Shown piece after piece: positions 17,614 to 53,414 of a stretch of 53,445 nt of DNA (within the stretch, counting starts at the first letter, position 1; each line of letters begins with the position of its first letter). A model generated the notes under the pieces. It was not told where the DNA came from, ran no database searches, and saw nothing but the letters and a program-made list of their open reading frames with translations. The position numbers and the translations under genes are program-made. This DNA comes from Kiritimatiellia bacterium (GTDB taxonomy: Bacteria > Verrucomicrobiota > Kiritimatiellia > RFP12 > JBMNHG01): assembly GCA_045627705.1 (NCBI GenBank), contig JAZQOE010000154.1, positions 1-53,445 on the forward strand, given 5' to 3'.

Positions 17614-18483
17614 ATGAGTGAACACGAATGCTCCGGCGACTGTTCCCACTGCAGCCATGCCGCCGAAGAGAAAAAGGAAGATTGCAAGCTTGAGAAGGCG
17701 ATGTCGCAGATCAAGCACAAGATCGTCGTGATGTCCGGCAAAGGCGGCGTCGGCAAGAGCACTGTCGCGGTGAATCTCGCCATGGCGCTTGCCCAGTCTG
17801 GCAAGAAGGTTGGTCTTCTCGATATCGACATCCACGGGCCCAGCGTTCCGAAGATGCTGCATGTCGAGGGTGCGCAGGTTGGCGCCGACAACGGCCGCAT
17901 CATTCCTGTCGAGGCATACGGCATCAAGGTCGTCTCCCTCGGCTTCCTCCTTGATTCCCCCGATAGCGCCGTAATCTGGCGCGGTCCGATGAAGATCGGA
18001 GTGATCAAGCAGTTCCTCTTGGATGTCGCCTGGGGCGCTCTCGACTATCTGGTGATCGACTCGCCGCCTGGCACTGGCGACGAGCCATTGACCGTTTGCC
18101 AGCTTCTCATGAAGGGCGGCAACGCTGGTGCGGTGGTTGTGACGACTCCCCAGGCCGTTGCGGCAACCGATGTCTCGAAGTCGCTGAACTTCTGCGAACA
18201 GATGAACTTCCCGGTGATTGGCATCGTCGAGAACATGAGTGGATTTGTCTGCCCGCACTGCGGCAAGATCACTCAGATTTTCTCGAAGGGCGCCGGCGAC
18301 GATCTCGCAATGCGCTACGAGGTTCCGCTTCTCGGCAGCATTCCAATCGACCCGCTTGTGTGTTGCGGCGGCGATTCCGGACTTCCGTTTATCTCCGGCA
18401 CTTCCGAATCGCCCACGAAGTCCGCCTTTTCCAAGATCGTGGAGTCCATCGGCGCGCTTGCGGTGGCGCGGGGCGCCGATTGA
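17614..18483 (+). CDS. mrp: Mrp/NBP35 (ApbC) Fe-S carrier ATPase
   Basis: N-terminal Cys cluster, MSGKGGVGKSTVA, DIDIHGPS, IWRGPMK, DSPPGTGDE, ENMSGFVCPHCG. Confidence 0.93.
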   Translation: MSEHECSGDCSHCSHAAEEKKEDCKLEKAMSQIKHKIVVMSGKGGVGKSTVAVNLAMALAQSGKKVGLLDIDIHGPSVPKMLHVEGAQVGADNGRIIPVEAYGIKVVSLGFLLDSPDSAVIWRGPMKIGVIKQFLLDVAWGALDYLVIDSPPGTGDEPLTVCQLLMKGGNAGAVVVTTPQAVAATDVSKSLNFCEQMNFPVIGIVENMSGFVCPHCGKITQIFSKGAGDDLAMRYEVPLLGSIPIDPLVCCGGDSGLPFISGTSESPTKSAFSKIVESIGALAVARGAD

Positions 18484-18888
18484 GATAACAGATAACAGTG
18501 AACAGATAACAAGTATCGCTGGGGGCTTCGCCCCAAGATCCCTTGCAGATTGGCGACGGCGAGGGCGCCGTCGCAACGCACGACGCGCAAAACTTGCCAA
18601 CTTGAAAACACTGACAACTCTGTCAACTTGGCAACAACCGGCTGCTCCACTGCTAACTCGCACGTCGAGTTGTGCAGTCGCGCAGTGCTATCCAGTCCTA
18701 AGTTGTCTAGTGGCCAAGTTTTCAAGTTGCCAGAGTTGTCAAGTGCGCTGTGGATCGGGGCGCCGCTGACCCAGCGGCGATTGCGCGCGAACTGCGGTGC
18801 GGCCGCCGAGTCGGCGGCCCTCCGTTTGGCGCAGCCGCGCCGAAATTCTGCGCTGCAGGCGAAGGCGGCAGCGATATCTGTTATCTCA
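18481..18888. mobile_element. MITE/REPIN-like non-coding element with terminal inverted repeats
   Basis: TGAGATAACAGATA (18481-18494) and its reverse complement TATCTGTTATCTCA (18875-18888), plus several internal hairpins and inverted periodic arms. Fills the gap between two convergent genes. Confidence 0.5.
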
Positions 18889-38866: not shown

Positions 38867-38894
38867 ATGTCGCATAATATGAGTTATGTCAACT
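38867..38894 (+). other. dif-like XerC/XerD recombination site
   Basis: ATGTCGCATAA-TATGAG-TTATGTCAACT, versus E. coli dif GGTGCGCATAA-TGTATA-TTATGTTAAAT: same 11-6-11 architecture. Overlaps the xerD stop codon. Confidence 0.8.
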
Positions 38895-39791
38895 TGGGCG
38901 GTGCGCACGCGGGTGGAAGTTCTTGTGGGTCGCGACTAGACGACCTGCATCGACATGCGTGTAAATCTGAGTTGTCTCGACGCTGGCATGTCCAAGCATC
39001 TCCTGGATAACGCGAATCTGCGCGCCATGTTCAAGCAGATGAGTGGCGAAGCAGTGACGCAATGTGTGCGGATGAATCTGTCCGGCAAGCCCGGCTTCGC
39101 GCGCGCGCTTGGCCAGCATCTTCCAGATTCCCTGGCGCGAAAAACGCTCGCCAAGGCGTGTCAAGAAAACCTCGGGGACATCCTGGCCAGGACGAACCAG
39201 CTTCGGCCTGACCCCATCCAAGTAGATGCTGAGGGCATCCGCGGCAATGCTGCCGATTGGAACGATTCTCTGTTTGTCGCCCTTGCCCAGGCAACGCAGG
39301 TATTTCGCATCGAGATGGAGATCGCTCATGCGGAGCATCGCGAGCTCCGAAACGCGCAAACCGCAGGCGTAGAAGGTTTCAAGGATGGCACGGTCGCGGA
39401 TTGAAAGCGGATCATTGCCAGCGGGCGCGGCAAGAAGTGCTACGATGTCATCCTCCGTCACAACCTTTGGAAGCTGCAATCCGCGGCGCGCCGCATGGAG
39501 TACGGAAGCGACATTCGAATCGATGATTCCTTCCGATGTCAGGTACGCGAAAAAGACCTTCAAGGCGACGAGACGACGCGCGGAAGTCGCCGGCGCCATT
39601 TCGCGGATTTTCAGATCCTCGAGATATTCCTGGAGATCGGTGCGCCTGACGGCACTTGGATATTTGATCCCACGGTCCGAAAGGAACTCGGCGAAATCGG
39701 CCAAGTCGCGACCGTATGATTCGCGAGTGTTATGCGACAGGCCGCGTTCGAGAACCAGGTAGTCGAGGAATTGTCTTATCGCGGAATCCAT
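38889..39791 (-). CDS. xerD: Site-specific tyrosine recombinase XerD
   Basis: LERGLSHNTRESYGRDL, RDRAILETFYACGLRVSEL, GKGDKQRIVP, HPHTLRHCFATHLL, QEMLGHASVETTQIYTHV, HPRA. Confidence 0.92.
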   Translation of the reverse strand: MDSAIRQFLDYLVLERGLSHNTRESYGRDLADFAEFLSDRGIKYPSAVRRTDLQEYLEDLKIREMAPATSARRLVALKVFFAYLTSEGIIDSNVASVLHAARRGLQLPKVVTEDDIVALLAAPAGNDPLSIRDRAILETFYACGLRVSELAMLRMSDLHLDAKYLRCLGKGDKQRIVPIGSIAADALSIYLDGVRPKLVRPGQDVPEVFLTRLGERFSRQGIWKMLAKRAREAGLAGQIHPHTLRHCFATHLLEHGAQIRVIQEMLGHASVETTQIYTHVDAGRLVATHKNFHPRAHRPS

Positions 39792-46544: not shown

Positions 46545-47912
46545 ATGAGCAACGAAATCCCATACAAGACTTATCTGGCCGAAAACGAGCTTCCCTCGGC
46601 CTGGTACAATGTCCGCGCCGACATGGCGAAGAAGCCCGCGCCCCTGCTGAACCCGCAGACGCACCAGCCTTGCACGCAGGAGGAACTGGAGCAGGTCTTC
46701 TGCAGCGAATGCGTGAAGCAGGAACTCGATGACTCGACCCCATACATCGCGATTCCCACGCCCGTGCTGGATTTCTACAAGATGTACAGGCCCTCCCCGC
46801 TCGTCCGCGCATACTTCCTCGAACGCGCCCTCGGCACACCCGCGAAGATATACTACAAGTTCGAAGGCAACAACACCTCGGGCTCCCACAAGCTGAACAG
46901 CGCGATTCCACAGGCATACTACGCGGCGGAACAGGGACTGCGCGGTGTAACGACAGAAACCGGCGCGGGACAATGGGGGACGGCGCTTTCGATGGCTTGC
47001 GCCTTCTACCATCTCGACTGCAAGGTTTTCATGGTCAAGTGCTCCTACGAACAGAAGCCATTCCGCCGCGAAGTGATGCGCACATACGGCGCCATGGTGG
47101 AGCCTTCGCCGTCGATGACGACCGAAGTCGGCCGCCAGATCAACGCCGCTCACCCCGGCACGACCGGCTCGCTCGGCTGCGCGATTTCCGAAGCCGTCGA
47201 ATGCGCCCGCACCAGCGAAGGCTACCGCTACCTCCTCGGCAGCGTCATGAACCTCGTCTGCCTCCACCAGTCGATCATCGGACTTGAAACGCAGACCGCG
47301 CTGCGTAGGCTTGGAGTGAAGCCGGATGTCATCATCGGCTGCGCCGGCGGCGGCTCGAACCTGGCCGGGCTGATAGCGCCGTTCATGGGCGAAGTCCTGC
47401 GAGGCGAGGCGGACTACCGCTTTATCGCGGTCGAACCATCCAGCTGCCCCTCGCTCACACGCGGCAGGTATGCGTACGATTTCTGCGACACCGGCAAAAT
47501 ATGCCCGCTCCAGAAGATGTACACGCTCGGACACGATTTTATTCCGTCGGCAAACCACGCGGGCGGATTGCGCTATCACGGAATGAGTTCGACACTCTCC
47601 GAACTCTACGAGCAGGGCTTGATGGAGGCCCGCTCGGTCGAGCAGACCAGCGTATTCGATGCGGCCAGATTTTTCGCTCGCACGGAGGGCATCCTCCCCG
47701 CCCCGGAATCGTCACACGCCATCAGGGTGGCGATAGACGAAGCACGGCGCTGCACGCGCGAGGGCAAAGCGGAAACAATCGTATTCGGACTCACCGGAAC
47801 CGGATATTTCGACATGACCAGCTATGCGAAATTCAATGACGGCACGATGACCGACTACATCCCGACCGACGACGAAATCGCGGCCAGCCTCGCCAAACTG
47901 CCAAGTCTCTGA
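46545..47912 (+). CDS. trpB: TrpB-like PLP-dependent enzyme (tryptophan synthase beta, TrpB2 type)
   Basis: WYNVRAD, RPSPLVRA, GSHKLNSA, TETGAGQWG, GSLGCAISEAVE, GCAGGGSN, HAGGLRYHG, PAPESSHA. Confidence 0.95.
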   Translation: MSNEIPYKTYLAENELPSAWYNVRADMAKKPAPLLNPQTHQPCTQEELEQVFCSECVKQELDDSTPYIAIPTPVLDFYKMYRPSPLVRAYFLERALGTPAKIYYKFEGNNTSGSHKLNSAIPQAYYAAEQGLRGVTTETGAGQWGTALSMACAFYHLDCKVFMVKCSYEQKPFRREVMRTYGAMVEPSPSMTTEVGRQINAAHPGTTGSLGCAISEAVECARTSEGYRYLLGSVMNLVCLHQSIIGLETQTALRRLGVKPDVIIGCAGGGSNLAGLIAPFMGEVLRGEADYRFIAVEPSSCPSLTRGRYAYDFCDTGKICPLQKMYTLGHDFIPSANHAGGLRYHGMSSTLSELYEQGLMEARSVEQTSVFDAARFFARTEGILPAPESSHAIRVAIDEARRCTREGKAETIVFGLTGTGYFDMTSYAKFNDGTMTDYIPTDDEIAASLAKLPSL

Positions 47913-47914
47913 TT

Positions 47915-48274
47915 AGCGCGGAATCGGGCGCGTATTGCGGGCGAATCCCCCGCGAAGCGCGAGATTGGCCACGTCGAGCAACTCGATCGCATCGATCACT
48001 TCGACTTGCTCGACCTGCACGACTCGATCGACGCGGCCGATTTCACGAACCTCCCGCGACGCGCGGGATCGGGCGCGTGTTGCGGGCGAGTCCCCCGCGA
48101 AGCGCGAGATCGGCCACGTCGAGCAACTCGATCGCATCGATCACCTCGACTTGCCCGACTCGCACGACTCGATCGACGCGGCCGATCCCGCTAAATCTCC
48201 CGCGAAGCGCGGGATCGGGCGCGCATTGCGGGCGAATCCCCCGCGAAGCGCGAGATCGGGCGCGTATTGCGGGC
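47915..48274. repeat. Mosaic hairpin repeat array, left (A-B-A-B-A-A')
   Basis: 41-bp unit A at 47915, 48060, 48206 and partial at 48247; 104-105-bp unit B at 47956 and 48101. Shared junction CCCGCGAAGCGCGRRATCGG. Confidence 0.9.
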
Positions 48275-48366
48275 AGAAAATGTCGCCCGGCAGGCGACAC
48301 ATTGCCACCCAAAAGCCGCTATTATCGCATCCATTCATTCAACTGAAACTGAAAGCGAGGCAAACA

Positions 48367-49122
48367 ATGGATGGCAATCGGCTCATAGGTGGTTCCGGCG
48401 GATACTTCAAACTTGATTCCTGGACGCTCGCAAATATCGTGCAACTTGGAACCCTGAAATTTTGCGAACGTTTCCTCGACCTCAAGAACGATCCCTGCGG
48501 CAGACTATACGATCAAATGACACAGGCTGCACGCTCTGGCGTTGCAAATATTGCCGAAGGCTCCGCCAGACATCATACATCCACAGAAACAGAAATGTCG
48601 CTGACAGATGTCGCTCGCGCAAGTCTCCAGGAACTTTCCGGCGATTATCTCAATTGGCTCCTTCGCCATGATCAGGTTCCATGGTTGAAAAACTCGGAGG
48701 ATGCTCAATTGATTTACACCATTCGCCTATCACCATGCGCTTACAGTAACGATATCCAGCACGATGCCTGTGCGAGAATCCTTGCCGATAAAAAGAAATT
48801 TGAACCCTGGCTCGAATCGAATAATTCTCTGATTGTCGCCAACGCCTTGCTCGTTCTTATCGCGCGAACCTGCAACATGCTCAACAGACAACTCCAATCA
48901 CAAGAAAATGATTTTCGCACAACAGGCGGTTTTCGCGAAAACCTCACGAAGGCCAGATTGGAAGCCCGCAAATTACAAAACATGGCAGAAGGAGCACCTA
49001 CATGCCCGATATGCGGTGCGCCAATGCTCAAAATAGTGGCCAAACGCGGTCGAAATTGCGGCCATGAGTTCTGGGGCTGCACAAAATACCCAGATTGCAA
49101 GGGCACGCGAGATGTCTCATGA
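48367..49122 (+). CDS. Four-helix-bundle (IVS/Avd-like) protein with a suffix domain and a C-terminal topoisomerase-type C4 zinc ribbon
   Basis: GGYFKLDSW, DQMTQAARSGVANIAEGS, LTDVARASLQELSGDY, ANALLVLI…MLNRQL…F…GGFRENL, CPICGAPM…FWGCTKYPDCKG. More AT-rich than its neighbours. Confidence 0.85.
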   Translation: MDGNRLIGGSGGYFKLDSWTLANIVQLGTLKFCERFLDLKNDPCGRLYDQMTQAARSGVANIAEGSARHHTSTETEMSLTDVARASLQELSGDYLNWLLRHDQVPWLKNSEDAQLIYTIRLSPCAYSNDIQHDACARILADKKKFEPWLESNNSLIVANALLVLIARTCNMLNRQLQSQENDFRTTGGFRENLTKARLEARKLQNMAEGAPTCPICGAPMLKIVAKRGRNCGHEFWGCTKYPDCKGTRDVS

Positions 49123-49127
49123 CTCAG

Positions 49128-49570
49128 CCGCCGAACCTTCCGCGAAGCGCGAGATCGGGCGCGTATTGCGGGCGAGTCCCCGCGAAGCGCGAGATCGGCC
49201 ACGTCGAGCAACTCGATCGCATCGATCACCTCGACTTGCCCGACCCGCTCGCCTCGATCGACGCGGCCGATCCCGCCGAACCTCCCGCGAAGCGCGGAAT
49301 CGGGCGCGTGTTGCGGGCGAGTCCCCCGCGAAGCGCGGGATCGGGCGCGCATTGCGGGCGAGTCCCCCGCGAAGCGCGAAATCGGCCATGTCGAGCAACT
49401 CGATCGCATCGATCGCCTCGACTTGCTCGACTCGCACGACTCGATCGACGCGGCCGATTTCGCCGAACCTCCCGCGAAGCGCGAGATCGGCCACGTCGAG
49501 CAACTCGATCGCGTCGATCGCCGCGACTTGCTCGACCTGCACGACTCGATTGACGCGGCCGATTTCGCCG
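49128..49570. repeat. Mosaic hairpin repeat array, right (B-end, A-B-A-A-B-B')
   Basis: Same units and orientation as the left array: A at 49146, 49291, 49332; B at 49186, 49373, 49478. Confidence 0.9.
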
Positions 49571-49628
49571 CTCCCCAAATGGCACAATAGATGCTATTGC
49601 AAAATCCCACTTGAATCAAAGGATACCC

Positions 49629-52600
49629 ATGAAACCACTAAAGACAACAACGCTCGCATTTGCCGCGGCGGTGTTGGCGCTTTCCGCCAAGGCCGACGAC
49701 CGCACGATGTCATTCAATTCCGAGATCAATGTCCTCCCCGCCCCCGGCGCGGTGACTGTGGATGGACTCGACAACGACTGGGATCTTTCCGCAGGCGTGT
49801 GGAGCTACAACGACCCTCTTATCGTTGACCGTTACTCCGTCTGGACTCACATGATGTGGGATGCCAACGGCGTCTATATGCTCGCCCGCTACACCGACAA
49901 CTCGCCGATGAAGAATGCCGCCGCCGGCAAGGACTTCTCGATGAGCTGGCGCGCGGACTGCTACCAGGCGCGAGTAATCTTCGATGACGGCACGCCAGAC
50001 GAACACCAGATGCACGTCAACATGTACTACTCTTCGCCCGACGTGCGCCCGTACATGATCATCAAGCATGGCGGTTTCAAGGCCAAGCCCCCTTACGACG
50101 CGACCGGCGTGGACCGTCCAGACCAGCTTGAAAAGTGGGGTCCGACCATGGACGCACTCGGCGGCAAGATCGCCTTCGCCCCATGGCAAGACGGCAAGGG
50201 CTACAACATGGAGGTCTTCTGGCCGTGGAGCTATTGCCGCACCTCCGGCAAAGCCCTCGAACCAGGAGAATCCTTCACCTACGGCATCGAGGCCATGTGG
50301 GGCAACGCCGCCGGCGAAATGCTCGCGCACCGTCTTGCCGACGGCATCAAGGATGAGACCGTCAACCGCATCTTCATGTTCCGCGCCCGCACTGGCTGGG
50401 GCCGCGCCCTCATCCTCGACCACGGCAACCTCACCGTGACCGAAGAGCAGAAGGCGCTCCGCAAGGACCGCGAAAAGCACTTCGTTGACTACGACACCTA
50501 CGGCAGCGTCCCGCTCCAATACTCCGTCCCGGCCGACCGCGACGTGACCATCGCGATCGACGACGCCCAGGGCCGCCGCGTCCGCAATCTCTTCGGCCAG
50601 TACCCGCGCTCGAAGGGCGATGTCACCGACCTCTGGGACTGCCTCGACGATAATGGCAACCCGGTCGCCCCCGGCAAGTACAATGTGACGATCGTCCACC
50701 ACGATCCTATCGCCCTCAAGTTCTTCAACTCGGTTTACTCCTCCGCCACCCCGCCGTGGAACACCGAAAACGGCTCGAAGCTCTGGGGCGCCAACCACGG
50801 CCACCCGACATCCGTCGCTACGCGCGGCGACAAGACCGTCCTCCTCTTCACAGGCACGGAAGGCGGCTCCGGCATGCAGCGCATCGACGACGACGGCATC
50901 ATCGTCTGGGCCGACCACAACGAGTTCGTCGATGGCACGATCGACGACACCTACTCGTACGGTCTCTCCCGCTCCTCGTGGCAGAGCTGCACGCTCATCG
51001 CCCGCTACCGCGTCACTGACGGCCACCTCGAACCCTTCGAGGACGAGAACCGCACGCCCAACGCGGTCATCCTCCCCGATGCGACAATCACCGACACATC
51101 GACCATCGCGATCGCCCACGGCGCTCTCTGGGTCTTCTGCCCGAATCGCGCCTTCCTGAAAATCGACCCCGCAACTGGCAAGGTAATCGAAACCCTCGAA
51201 ATGCCCGAAGGCCTCTGCGCCCTCACCGACCGCAATGACAAGCTCTTCGCACTCTATGCCGATGGCGCGGTCCGCCTCCTCGGCCCGGATGGCAAGCCCG
51301 TCGGCGACGTCGTGAAGTTCGATGGTCTCTCCAAGCCCGTCCGCCTCGGCATCGACATGGAAGAGAAGCGCTTCGCCGTCTCCGACCTCGACACCAACCA
51401 GGTTCTCATCTACGGTGCCGATGGCAAGCGCATTTCCGCGATTGGCTCCGCCCGTCCCGGTAAGGACCGCCCCGCCGGCGCATTCGTCAAGACCGACCTG
51501 ATCCGCCCGCTCGGCGCAGACTTCGACCATCTCGGCCGCCTTTGGATCGCAGAATGCGTCAAGACATGCAAGCGCGTGACTTGCTGGGACGCCGCCGACT
51601 ACCACCTCCTCGACCAGTACTGGGGACAGGCCGACTATGGCGCAATGGCCGGCTTCCCGATCACCTTCGACGCCACGCGCTTCATCGCCCACGGCATCGA
51701 GTTCAAGCTTGACCCCGCCCCCGATCCATGGCACCGCAAGACCAACGAGGAACCGCTCGTTTACCATCCCGAACTCGTTTCCGCCCGCGGTCCCGTTTAC
51801 CGCCTCAACGGCCACGAGTACGCCTGCGGCTGCCCCGGCTACAACAAGCCGGATTCCCTCAAGATGTTCATGCGCGGCGAAGACGGCGTCTTCCATGAAT
51901 GCATGAAGATCACCTGGTCCGGCCGCCAACGCATCGACAACAAGTGGGTCGAAGTCCCCGGTACCGCATGGATCGATTCGAACAACAACCACGAGGTCGA
52001 TGACGGCGAAACCTTCGTAGGACTCGACGCCCGCAACCTCTACTGGTCCAACGGCTGGATTCGTCCCGACCTCGCGATCCTCCTCACGAACAACAAATTC
52101 TTCAAGCCCACCGGATTCACCGAAGCCGGCATTCCGATCTACGACTTCGCCCACCCCGAAGCGCTCGGCGACGGCCGTGGCTTCCCCGACGGACAGGGTT
52201 CGGTCGGCACGCCGATCGTCGATAACGCCGGCAATGTCTCCAACGGCATCCGCTACCAGACAGTCGATGGCCGCACTGGCTCCTACCCGAACCGCTACGG
52301 CCGCCATGACGCCCCCGCCGCGCAGCGCGGCGTGCTTATCGCCCCGTTCCGCGCCAACGGCGTCGTGGAAGACATCCCCGGCGTCGGCAGCGTGATGGCG
52401 CTCGGCGGCGACCGCGGCGAGTGGTTCCTCTTCTCGATGGACGGAATCTACCTCTCCTCGATCTGCCAGGACAGCAAGGGCAATGTCGTCCTCGACGAGA
52501 CATTCATCGGCCAGGAATCCTTCGGCGGATTCATCTGGCGCGATCTCGAGACCGGCAAGGTGCTCGTCCAGCTCGGCGGCCCCTCGTACCGCCTGATGGA

Positions 52601-53414
52601 AGTCACCGGACTTGAGTCCTGCGTGCGCATCGACAAGGAGATCGAAGTCTCGGCCGACGATATCGCCAAGGGCGTCGAAATCGTCCAGAAGCGCCAGCAG
52701 GAGTCGGTGCACGAGCCCGCCACAATCACCATCGCGAAGGTCAATCGCCTTCCCGCGCAGCCCGCGCCCGTGATGCAGCCAATGAACCGCCCGCTCATCG
52801 ACGGCGCGGTTGACATCCCCGTCCACGAAGAGGGCAACAAGTCCGTCTGGTGGCGCGCCTCCCTCGCCCACAACGGCAAGGATCTCGCCATGATGTTCCA
52901 GGTTGCAGACCCGTCGCCCTGGATGAACGCCGAAGGCCGCTTCACCCATCTCTTCATCGGTGGCGACGCCATCGACCTCCAGCTCGACATCCCCGGCCGC
53001 GGGCCATGCCGTCTGCTCGCGGCGCCGATGAACGGGCGCGGCACGGTCGTTTACTGGCAGCAGAAGGCCGAAGCCCCCTCGAACCCCGTGACATACTCCG
53101 TGGGCAACAACATGGCCAACGCCTCGAACTTCGACATCGTGAAGCTCGTCCCGAACGCCAAGGTCCAGGTTCAGACCGGAATCGGCTCATACACGGTGCT
53201 GGTGACAGTGCCACTCGCCGAACTCGGCATCGATAGCGCGGTGCTCGGCGAAACTGTCAAGGGCGTTGTCGGCGTGCTCTACTCCAGCCCCGCCGGCGAC
53301 GACACGCTCTCGCGCGTTTACTGGCACAACAAGTCAACCGGCCTCGTTTCGGATGTCCCGAGCGAGTCCCGCCTCTACCCCAACCTCTGGGGCGATGTCA
53401 CGATCGCGAAGTAA
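49629..53414 (+). CDS. Large secreted protein: sugar-binding (CBM9-like) domains, FlgD-type Ig domain, beta-propeller/NHL repeats
   Basis: Signal peptide MKPLK…LSAKA; VTVDGLDNDWD; VTIAIDDAQGRRVRNL…WDCLDDNGNPVAPGKY; KPVRLGID…AVSD..TNQVLIY; WIDSNNNHEVD; RVYWHNK…SDVPSE…WG. Confidence 0.7.
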   Translation: MKPLKTTTLAFAAAVLALSAKADDRTMSFNSEINVLPAPGAVTVDGLDNDWDLSAGVWSYNDPLIVDRYSVWTHMMWDANGVYMLARYTDNSPMKNAAAGKDFSMSWRADCYQARVIFDDGTPDEHQMHVNMYYSSPDVRPYMIIKHGGFKAKPPYDATGVDRPDQLEKWGPTMDALGGKIAFAPWQDGKGYNMEVFWPWSYCRTSGKALEPGESFTYGIEAMWGNAAGEMLAHRLADGIKDETVNRIFMFRARTGWGRALILDHGNLTVTEEQKALRKDREKHFVDYDTYGSVPLQYSVPADRDVTIAIDDAQGRRVRNLFGQYPRSKGDVTDLWDCLDDNGNPVAPGKYNVTIVHHDPIALKFFNSVYSSATPPWNTENGSKLWGANHGHPTSVATRGDKTVLLFTGTEGGSGMQRIDDDGIIVWADHNEFVDGTIDDTYSYGLSRSSWQSCTLIARYRVTDGHLEPFEDENRTPNAVILPDATITDTSTIAIAHGALWVFCPNRAFLKIDPATGKVIETLEMPEGLCALTDRNDKLFALYADGAVRLLGPDGKPVGDVVKFDGLSKPVRLGIDMEEKRFAVSDLDTNQVLIYGADGKRISAIGSARPGKDRPAGAFVKTDLIRPLGADFDHLGRLWIAECVKTCKRVTCWDAADYHLLDQYWGQADYGAMAGFPITFDATRFIAHGIEFKLDPAPDPWHRKTNEEPLVYHPELVSARGPVYRLNGHEYACGCPGYNKPDSLKMFMRGEDGVFHECMKITWSGRQRIDNKWVEVPGTAWIDSNNNHEVDDGETFVGLDARNLYWSNGWIRPDLAILLTNNKFFKPTGFTEAGIPIYDFAHPEALGDGRGFPDGQGSVGTPIVDNAGNVSNGIRYQTVDGRTGSYPNRYGRHDAPAAQRGVLIAPFRANGVVEDIPGVGSVMALGGDRGEWFLFSMDGIYLSSICQDSKGNVVLDETFIGQESFGGFIWRDLETGKVLVQLGGPSYRLMEVTGLESCVRIDKEIEVSADDIAKGVEIVQKRQQESVHEPATITIAKVNRLPAQPAPVMQPMNRPLIDGAVDIPVHEEGNKSVWWRASLAHNGKDLAMMFQVADPSPWMNAEGRFTHLFIGGDAIDLQLDIPGRGPCRLLAAPMNGRGTVVYWQQKAEAPSNPVTYSVGNNMANASNFDIVKLVPNAKVQVQTGIGSYTVLVTVPLAELGIDSAVLGETVKGVVGVLYSSPAGDDTLSRVYWHNKSTGLVSDVPSESRLYPNLWGDVTIAK

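Follow-up and report, generated by a model that had tools for sequence, protein, structure and literature searches.

A helix-bundle/zinc-ribbon gene enclosed by two-module repeat arrays in a Kiritimatiellia genome, and the phased repeats that flank its relatives

We analysed a window of 53,445 nt, contig JAZQOE010000154.1 (C154) of assembly GCA_045627705.1, from a Kiritimatiellia bacterium (genome label G000) represented by a metagenome-assembled genome (MAG) of 167 contigs that is 92% complete. The interval between a trpB2-like gene and the gene of a large secreted protein holds seven copies of a 41-nt stem-loop (unit A), five copies of a 105-nt unit (unit B) together with a fragment of B, and a gene for a 251-residue protein that combines a helix bundle with a zinc ribbon. 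On balance, and with moderate confidence, we read this interval as an amplified and reshuffled form of a widespread gene-plus-repeat cassette that would be selfish, with B as its cognate palindrome and a protein that would bind its own repeats.

Phased short repeats adjoin the gene family across phyla

The flanks of related genes were surveyed in the best 80 of 582 related loci, taken from contigs of one genome per species. Tandem Repeats Finder (TRF) was run on 200 nt on each side of the gene, accepting periods of 7–11 with a score of 30 or more, and 200-nt windows from the same loci, at least 600 nt from the gene, served as controls. A tandem repeat of period 7–11 was present in 52 of 78 upstream and 53 of 78 downstream flanks; 71 of the 80 loci had such a repeat on one side or both, and 34 of 76 had it on both sides, against 82 of the 871 control windows. 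The loci are drawn from several phyla, and across them the repeats adjoin the gene family at seven times the background rate. This bears out the module of a protein and structured repeats that a sequence-only reading of the window had proposed, and speaks against the possibility, which that reading had allowed, that the repeats are generic repetitive extragenic palindromic (REP) elements with no enrichment beside this gene family. The same pattern is visible by eye at 22 full-length loci found in 30 relatives within the order. The self-match at a given lag, tried first as a periodicity score, is high in coding DNA at lags 6 and 9, so that flanks could not be told from controls; TRF was used instead.

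Periods of 9 nt (47 flanks), 8 nt (46) and 10 nt (10) were found, and 43 of the 47 period-9 flanks have a unit that contains TCGA; the 9-nt-periodic homologue flanks that the sequence-only reading had suggested looking for are thus present. The period tracks the protein tree (FastTree, 99 proteins). A period-9 clade carries this label in 33 of 35 rows and a Bacteroidales group has period 8 in 30 of 37, period 10 occurs in separate clades, and the label changes 22 times along the tree compared with 50.1 times when labels are shuffled. The window protein pairs, at 70–71% identity and with a support of 99, with that of locus L061, from a Kiritimatiellia MAG and with period-9 flanks. As related rows share labels by descent, the tree alone shows co-inheritance and not co-evolution. 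The motif goes with the gene and not with the host: a single MAG holds paralogues of period 9 (L084) and period 10 (L117), and each of the three helix-bundle genes in G000 has its own repeat (TCGA 9-mers on C154, CTGGGAC 9-mers on C64 and ATTCCAG 7-mers on C150).

Within the period-9 clade the palindrome is built from several TCGA-RRGAA units followed by several TCGA-TTCYY units. Upstream of the gene a complete palindrome stops short of the start codon by a median of 18 nt, a gap that leaves room for a ribosome-binding site, and the next begins a median of 17 nt past the stop codon. Of 64 flanks 33 were assessable; in 29 of these the purine-rich arm precedes the other, and a reversed order never occurs. 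The usual layout is palindrome, ribosome-binding site, gene and palindrome, in direct orientation, and the window has the same layout with B as the palindrome, the phased CGA nonamers of B standing on both sides of the gene. Palindromes contain between 4 and 11 spacers, a spread that leaves no fixed unit number, such as five for a pentamer.

Anatomy of the window array and its protein

All A and B units of the window lie in the same orientation, and each opens with a common junction of about 20 nt (Table 1). The left array runs A (at 47915, without the first junction bases)-B-A-B-A-A' (cut at 48274) and the right array runs 17-nt B tail (49123–49139)-A-B-A-A-B-B' (to about 49570), reproducing exactly the irregular direct-orientation order that the sequence-only reading had given for both flanks. 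That reading had also counted 11 copies of a constant junction of about 20 bp; we find the 12-mer junction core CCGCGAAGCGCG in 10 exact copies and one with a single mismatch on the + strand between 47950 and 49483, and elsewhere in the window only two one-mismatch matches per strand. With a 19-nt junction pattern the contig yields 9 exact and 2 one-mismatch copies. Two bodies stand between the junctions, 21 nt long in A and 85 nt in B, and both are repeated; the periods that TRF reports in the array are 145, 41, 187, 105 and 9 nt. Unit B, counted on its sequence, has eight CGA triplets spaced exactly 9 nt apart. Other details of the earlier description agree with ours: copies differ by scattered substitutions (1–9 of 36–41 positions in A, 6–15 of 104–105 in B), and the gene is lower in GC (49.5%) than the arrays (67.5–68.5%) and the window (59%). 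The borders agree as well, the array beginning 2 nt past the trpB2-like stop codon (47910–47912) and stopping 58 nt ahead of the downstream ATG (49629), where about 60 nt had been estimated.

What is unusual about this locus is that B stands twice on the left and three times, plus a tail fragment, on the right, that a second stem-loop, A (41 nt), is interleaved with it, that a 92-nt leader separates array and gene, and that the units are GC-rich with heterogeneous 5-nt spacers. In the genome-wide BLAST that had been proposed for the units, A was found only on C154 and as one degenerate copy beside half of a B unit at C147:8387–8482. The 19-nt junction pattern has 13 matches in G000 and no more than two in any of 300 further genomes from the order; among metagenome contigs it gave single matches in 44 and no arrays. 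Judged by these searches, the A/junction mosaic is lineage-specific, with A arrays in this genome only.

On the + strand, no sigma-70 consensus was found in the leader and a scan for promoter and terminator consensus sequences was empty; the one match of an Rfam search over 47000–50500, run to E 1, was to sucA and under threshold (21.5 bits against 40). The 7-bp mini-hairpin of the leader (48281–48299) recurs in a contig of another organism beside a GGGGACACACCCC-type element, and an 18-nt match to it lies at C115:946–963 of G000. This hairpin has the look of a separate, small dispersed repeat.

Unit A folds on the + strand through the first 12 nt of the junction, which pair with CGCGYRTTGCGG in a 12-bp stem of −24.1 kcal/mol. 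The hairpin described for it earlier is present in this form, and it is not clearly better than the folds of shuffled sequences (z −2.1 as RNA, −1.0 as DNA). In unit B the 3' part of the junction and the bases that follow it pair with the end of the unit. The sequence-only reading had taken B for a long hairpin of eight 9-mers; the 9-nt phasing stands, and of the hairpin the outer stem of about 14 bp alone is solid on the + strand (fold energy −41.4, z −3.1), while the − strand as RNA folds better (−58.4, z −4.2). Since all units form stem-loops with the 5' arm in the common junction, we prefer one arm with two bodies to a junction with two spacers, and the 'constant junction' is better described as the common 5' arm of all stem-loops. 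Each junction (for example 48096–48106) holds GCGAAGC, which a passage of PMC13037366 presents as a DNA mini-hairpin of extraordinary stability, a hint that folding of the units in single-stranded DNA may be possible.

The 251-residue protein exceeds the NCBIfam cut-offs of TIGR04258 (64.4 bits, cut-off 40) and TIGR02436 (28.6 bits, cut-off 24) and, over residues 212–248, that of Pfam PF01396, Zn_ribbon_Top1 (32.4 bits, cut-off 32); its score for PF05635, 26.5, falls under the cut-off of 33.8. An AlphaFold2 model built with 18 homologues (pLDDT 87.7) is helical to residue 207 and ends in a small beta zinc domain. The top Foldseek match is 2gsc, a PF05635 protein with five chains (E 7e-3, probability 1.00, TM 0.65 on the target), with 2rld at rank 9, and a profile search against the PDB also gave 2gsc (E 0.022). 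By Foldseek the C-terminal zinc domain resembles the Zf-GRF structures 5u6z and 7jl5 (APE2 and NEIL3 domains), and its cysteines are invariant in an alignment of homologues. Zf-GRF domains bind single-stranded DNA. With both NCBIfam cut-offs exceeded, a PF05635-like fold and a C4 zinc ribbon, the protein is a member of the TIGR04258/TIGR02436 family.

Identity to 17 aligned homologues is 59–71% (Kiritimatiellia, Lentisphaerae, Verrucomicrobia, Planctomycetes and others). The family is large, with 2682 matches at E up to 1e-3 among 3357 candidates scored, and homologues are named 'four helix bundle suffix domain-containing protein' in the databases. Many homologues come solely from contigs of about 1–2 kb, as is expected if flanking repeats break short-read assemblies. 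Some annotated homologues in the alignment (A1; P0016, P0114 and P0118) have Ser/Asn/Asp-rich C-terminal tails with a three-residue rhythm, which look like read-through into a downstream nonamer array.

Table 1 Features of the repeat-bracketed gene and its neighbours in the window
Feature	Position	Strand	Evidence
Upstream neighbour, TrpB-like pyridoxal phosphate (PLP) enzyme of trpB2 type, outside the element	46545–47912	+	NF009057 665.7 bits; TIGR01415 566.6 bits; PALP
Unit A, copy 1, without first junction bases; 2 nt past trpB2-like stop	47915–47949	+	
Unit B, copy L-B1, 104 nt; phased CGA/TCGA nonamers within ~14-bp inverted repeat	47950–48053	+	
Unit A, copy L-A2; junction with 1 mismatch	48054–48094	+	
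Unit B, copy L-B2, 105 nt; first 55 nt 100% identical to C147:8428–8482	48095–48199	+	
Unit A, copy L-A3	48200–48240	+	
Unit A, copy L-A4', truncated after ...TTGCGGGC	48241–48274	+	
Low-GC leader, 92 nt, 48.9% GC; 7-bp mini-hairpin at 48281–48299; GAGG 6 nt before ATG	48275–48366	+	
Gene of 251-residue protein: four-helix bundle, 4helix_suffix domain, C-terminal Top1/GRF-type C4 zinc ribbon	48367–49122	+	Pfam; NCBIfam; AlphaFold2; Foldseek
17-nt fragment, 3' tail of unit B (...GCCGCCGAACCT), immediately past stop codon	49123–49139	+	
Unit A, copy R-A1, 40 nt	49140–49179	+	
Unit B, copy R-B1	49180–49284	+	
Unit A, copies R-A2 and R-A3, 41 nt each	49285–49366	+	
Unit B, copy R-B2	49367–49471	+	
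Unit B, copy R-B3', last unit; tail passes into unique sequence	49472–49570	+	
Downstream neighbour, 1261-residue secreted protein; signal peptide and FlgD_ig domain; outside the element	49629–53414	+	

Acquisition, strain variation and competing explanations

The GC content at third codon positions (GC3) is 0.50 in the gene, 0.78 in trpB2 and 0.84 in the downstream gene, and the gene with its low-GC leader looks recently or horizontally acquired. No cassette lies downstream of trpB2 orthologues at any of eight loci (73–81% identical). An empty trpB2 junction, which the sequence-only reading had proposed to seek in relatives, is found in G001, a genome of the same genus, where trpB2 and the orthologue of the downstream gene are convergent and separated by a 193-nt gap. 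This orthologue is 83% identical over residues 828–1261, and on its 5' side it abuts another gene, with no repeats. The gene of the 1261-residue protein is thus co-directional with trpB2 in the window and convergent with it in G001:C3 (loci L013 and L195), a switch of orientation that places the cassette at a synteny or rearrangement breakpoint. The best helix-bundle homologue in G001 is only 55% identical, and the family is multi-copy and patchy. At L016 (G006:C41, of another family) a gene-less palindrome of CAGTATCC-type 8-mers lies about 70–200 nt past the trpB2 stop codon; the trpB2 3' flank may be a recurrent landing site, or such palindromes may be its terminator.

Three joins of the window recur in contigs from another run, of a strain 95–99% alike: the end of trpB2 with the array, A4' with the leader, and the last B with the sequence beyond it. 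As these contigs are independent and contain the trpB2-array join, errors in this assembly did not create the array. In the same contigs one joint skips exactly 41 nt (one A), another returns 146 nt (one A and one B), and one array end is without the last B, a pattern that fits unit-wise gain and loss via the common junction. Short contigs through repeats are prone to mis-joining, and of the earlier note's caution about assembly artefacts this much stands, that the exact order of units is unproven.

Runs of at least four TCGA occur genome-wide in G000 18 times at a spacing of 9 nt, and 0, 0, 1 and 0 times at spacings of 7, 8, 10 and 11. Thirteen of these TCGA-nonamer runs are without a helix-bundle gene; they are found on 11 other contigs, several at contig ends, and eight of the 13 lie between long open reading frames (ORFs) of high GC3. 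The mobile cassette suggested by the sequence-only reading is made plausible by these gene-less runs, by the absence from G001, by the foreign GC3 and by the multi-copy, patchy family, and it remains unproven; the processing by HUH enzymes suggested with it is not supported. The genome has an unusual expansion of Y1_Tnp (IS200/RAYT-like, RAYT being REP-associated tyrosine transposase), with 22 matches at no fewer than 14 loci and ORFs of about 330–340 codons (for example C59:10179–10661, C94:1982–2464 and C124:70992–71474), and none of the matches lies on the 12 contigs that hold TCGA-nonamer runs.

Other repeats and paralogues were seen in the same genome. Its 162 arrays of period 7–11 are dominated by two heptamer families, AGATAAC and AGGTAAG, which have no adjoining helix-bundle gene. 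One AGATAAC array stands in the window itself (18483–18744), together with an inverted pair of AACTTGNC 8-mer arrays near 18.5–18.7 kb. The paralogue at C64:32140–32990 (L002) encodes 229 residues, matches TIGR04258 and TIGR02436 and is without the zinc ribbon; a complete palindrome of CTGGGACNN 9-mers ends at its ribosome-binding site and a partial array lies past its stop codon. At C150:4480–5290 (L001) a classical short PF05635 gene (87.3 bits) lies on the − strand between ATTCCAG/CTGGAAT heptamer arrays that include a hairpin. Finally, inverted AGATAAC heptamer arrays enclose a gene-free stretch of about 600 nt at C147:8197–8890, which contains a degenerate A and the 5' half of a B that is 100% identical over 55 nt; within the same stretch a B-like 3' half follows after roughly 160 nt. 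The C147 palindrome appears to have been split by another small inverted-repeat insert.

From these results we propose that the cassette is selfish and that the gene is bracketed by palindromes of phased short units peculiar to its clade, here 9-mers with a TCGA core. By analogy with Avd, an oligomeric bundle with a zinc ribbon of the ssDNA-binding type would bind the phased units of its own palindromes. Such contact is suggested by the Avd-like bundle, by the likeness of the zinc ribbon to single-strand binders and by the clade-dependent periods of 7–10 nt; these periods would fit a single-strand footprint for each subunit better than any duplex phasing. The link of clade to period and motif at both ends of the gene makes recognition of phased units by the protein a testable hypothesis. 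Recombination between the two flanking direct palindromes could delete the gene and leave solo palindromes, and unequal recombination or replication slippage between the common arms could add, delete and reshuffle units. The common 5' arm of about 20 nt makes unit-wise events of this kind possible, and with them the irregular order of A and B on both sides. That the palindromes are amplified, shuffled as modules and different between strains indicates that the repeats are recombinationally active. They may act as DNA or as RNA, and the route of mobility drawn here is a putative one.

Several observations weigh against the selfish-cassette reading. Inheritance of gene and flanks as a block would also yield the link between clade and period, with no recognition involved, and related loci are not independent of one another. 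The likeness of B to the flanks of L061, its closest homologue, is at the level of the motif only (local alignment scores of 27–34, shuffled sequences reaching 25 at most). Inside B, pairing is poor on the + strand and complementarity only partial, and sense and antisense fold energies give no consistent strand signal. The 162 arrays of period 7–11 stand against three helix-bundle genes in this 92%-complete MAG; as arrays far outnumber genes, repeats clearly persist and spread without an adjoining gene. With an array of 68% GC and a gene of 49.5%, the gene may have inserted into an array already present instead of bringing B with it: the contrast in GC favours such landing, whereas the family-wide build favours bringing. 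Viral contigs contained no relatives and phage records gave no match; plasmids gave 13 partial matches, none covering at least 80% of the query and most of them to the zinc ribbon alone, so no vehicle of transfer emerges from these sources.

The first alternative, which we consider unlikely, is that the phased units are operator-like sites in duplex DNA: the protein would bind the TCGA arrays upstream, beside the ribosome-binding site, and downstream, to control its own transcription or that of its neighbours. The repeats would then not be borders of a mobile element, and their palindromic look would follow from the palindromic core. Because TCGA is self-complementary, any phased array appears partly palindromic; the upstream array ends close to the start codon (the 18-nt median given above), and the interior of B makes a poor hairpin on the + strand. 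An operator would account less well for an equally complete array past the stop codon, for solo arrays far from any helix-bundle gene and for sister clades with periods of 7, 8, 9 and 10 bp, which have no common helical phasing. The arms are also complementary beyond the core (RRGAA against TTCYY), 29 of 33 flanks keep a fixed polarity, and Zf-GRF folds, which the zinc domain resembles, bind single-stranded DNA.

It is improbable, in our judgement, that the palindromes function as RNA only, as RNase III sites, mRNA stabilisers or insulators that cut the message of the cassette from the host transcript, with neither DNA mobility nor protein binding. The cassette has the same orientation as its two neighbours, the + strand showed no consensus promoter or terminator, the stems are long enough for RNase III substrates, and the part of PMC4990558 consulted places the same protein family in intervening sequences of 23S rRNA, which are excised by RNase III. 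Against this, sense is not consistently the stabler strand: period-8 and period-10 flanks fold better as antisense by 3–12 kcal/mol, only upstream period-9 flanks favour sense, and B in the window folds better on the − strand. A role in RNA alone also leaves unexplained why period and motif follow the clade.

That A and B are generic palindromes of the REP or bacterial interspersed mosaic element (BIME) type, spread in trans by Y1 (IS200/RAYT-like) transposases and next to the gene by chance, we regard as highly doubtful. The Y1_Tnp expansion, the 162 short-period arrays and the gene-less TCGA-nonamer runs would suit it, as would an array GC that is host-like or higher, unlike that of the gene. 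However, no Y1_Tnp lies on the 12 contigs with TCGA-nonamer runs, A and the junction occur at two loci only (C154 and C147), the enrichment on both sides of the gene family extends across phyla at seven times background, and the type of repeat tracks the protein clade and not the host, as in the MAG that holds both L084 and L117.

An array of the CRISPR kind, in which alternating spacers between constant repeats would give small RNAs that work with the protein, has very little to commend it beyond a constant element of about 20 nt repeated 11 times in one orientation and the listing by a published CRISPR screen, in the section of PMC10910872 seen, of '23S rRNA IVP' among array-linked proteins: the analogy drawn by the sequence-only reading finds no support, as there are only two types of 'spacer', both repeated and both forming a stem-loop with the 'repeat', no cas gene is among the window ORFs scanned at 23–53 kb (padloc was not run), Rfam gives no match at gathering level, and relatives carry plain tandem nonamers without spacers. 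It is equally hard to credit that the assembler made the mosaic order or the join of trpB2, cassette and downstream gene, even in a MAG of 167 contigs whose units share stretches longer than typical k-mers, with related-strain contigs that suggest other unit numbers and a neighbour orientation that differs from G001, as copies carry scattered substitutions, independent contigs support the trpB2-array, A4'-leader and last-B joins, and palindrome-gene-palindrome recurs in dozens of unrelated assemblies.

One further mechanism would give the protein a more active part, and we hold it to be a long shot. The protein would be devoted to handling nucleic acid for a cassette of a new class, one with neither integrase nor transposase, and would act as an oligomer that reads one unit per subunit (7–10 nt, set by the clade) on single-stranded palindromes and promotes template switching or recombination. 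Such an activity, if real, would copy the cassette to new palindromes, produce solo palindromes and amplify and shuffle units, and it would be the first function for the large '23S rRNA IVS protein' family (IVS, intervening sequence).

Relation to known systems

The family of PF05635/TIGR02436 proteins, which includes the 23S-IVS proteins and relatives of Avd, is very large, and no function is known for it except in diversity-generating retroelements (DGRs). The window protein is no different from other members of TIGR04258/TIGR02436, and the name of the family is silent on flanking repeats. Were the selfish-cassette reading true, part of the intergenic short tandem and palindromic repeats in genomes of the Planctomycetes-Verrucomicrobia-Chlamydiae (PVC) group and of Bacteroidota would be explained; such repeats break metagenome assemblies and may be mistaken for CRISPR arrays.

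REP elements and BIMEs with their RAYTs are short extragenic stem-loops in mosaic tandem arrays between genes. The window shares the intergenic stem-loop mosaic, and G000 has Y1 transposase genes; it differs in that A is confined to two loci, no Y1 gene lies near the repeats and B is tied to one protein family across phyla. Integron cassettes offer a second analogy, as their ORF is bounded by imperfect palindromes in direct orientation (attC) and loss of the ORF would leave a single site. Here, in contrast, no integron integrase is apparent, the sole tyrosine recombinase of the window being Xer-like and 9 kb away (38892–39791), and the repeats are phased nonamers, apparently without attC architecture.

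Avd, the DGR accessory protein, is described in the portion of PMC6182149 seen as a pentameric, positively charged barrel in complex with RNA, and PF05635 is likened to Avd in an excerpt of PMC10053308. The window protein shares the four-helix-bundle fold and the superfamily with Avd, which works in a nucleic-acid complex; it differs in its PF05635 score, which is under the cut-off, and no pair of template and variable repeats was seen. No match to reverse transcriptase (PF00078) was found across the whole MAG (92% complete). A DGR was considered and is not supported, there being no reverse transcriptase match in the 92%-complete MAG and the neighbours being housekeeping genes (dcw cluster, PFL-like enzyme, Xer-like recombinase, RecD2, aspartokinase).

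The protein family of the window gene has a name and is uncharacterised, and the closest relatives described so far are the ORF-bearing IVS elements of 23S rRNA. In Coxiella burnetii such an IVS, with an S23p ORF, lies in helix 45 of 23S rRNA and is regarded, in the part of PMC4990558 consulted, as selfish and horizontally acquired. As in the window, a small gene of the PF05635 superfamily is enclosed by self-complementary sequence. The window element, however, lies between two protein genes and not at helix 25 or 45 of a 23S rRNA gene, with no rRNA match in Rfam over 47000–50500; each side has a complete palindrome in direct orientation where the IVS has one stem enclosing the ORF; its arms are phased 9-mers; and its protein has an additional suffix domain and a zinc ribbon. 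The full texts searched, in which most subscription journals and supplements were not covered, gave no description of repeat-bracketed helix-bundle cassettes outside rRNA, and the sole hint in that literature, in the segment of PMC10910872 noted above, links '23S rRNA IVP' to CRISPR-like arrays. What is new here is the amplified, two-module and strain-variable arrays that surround the gene.

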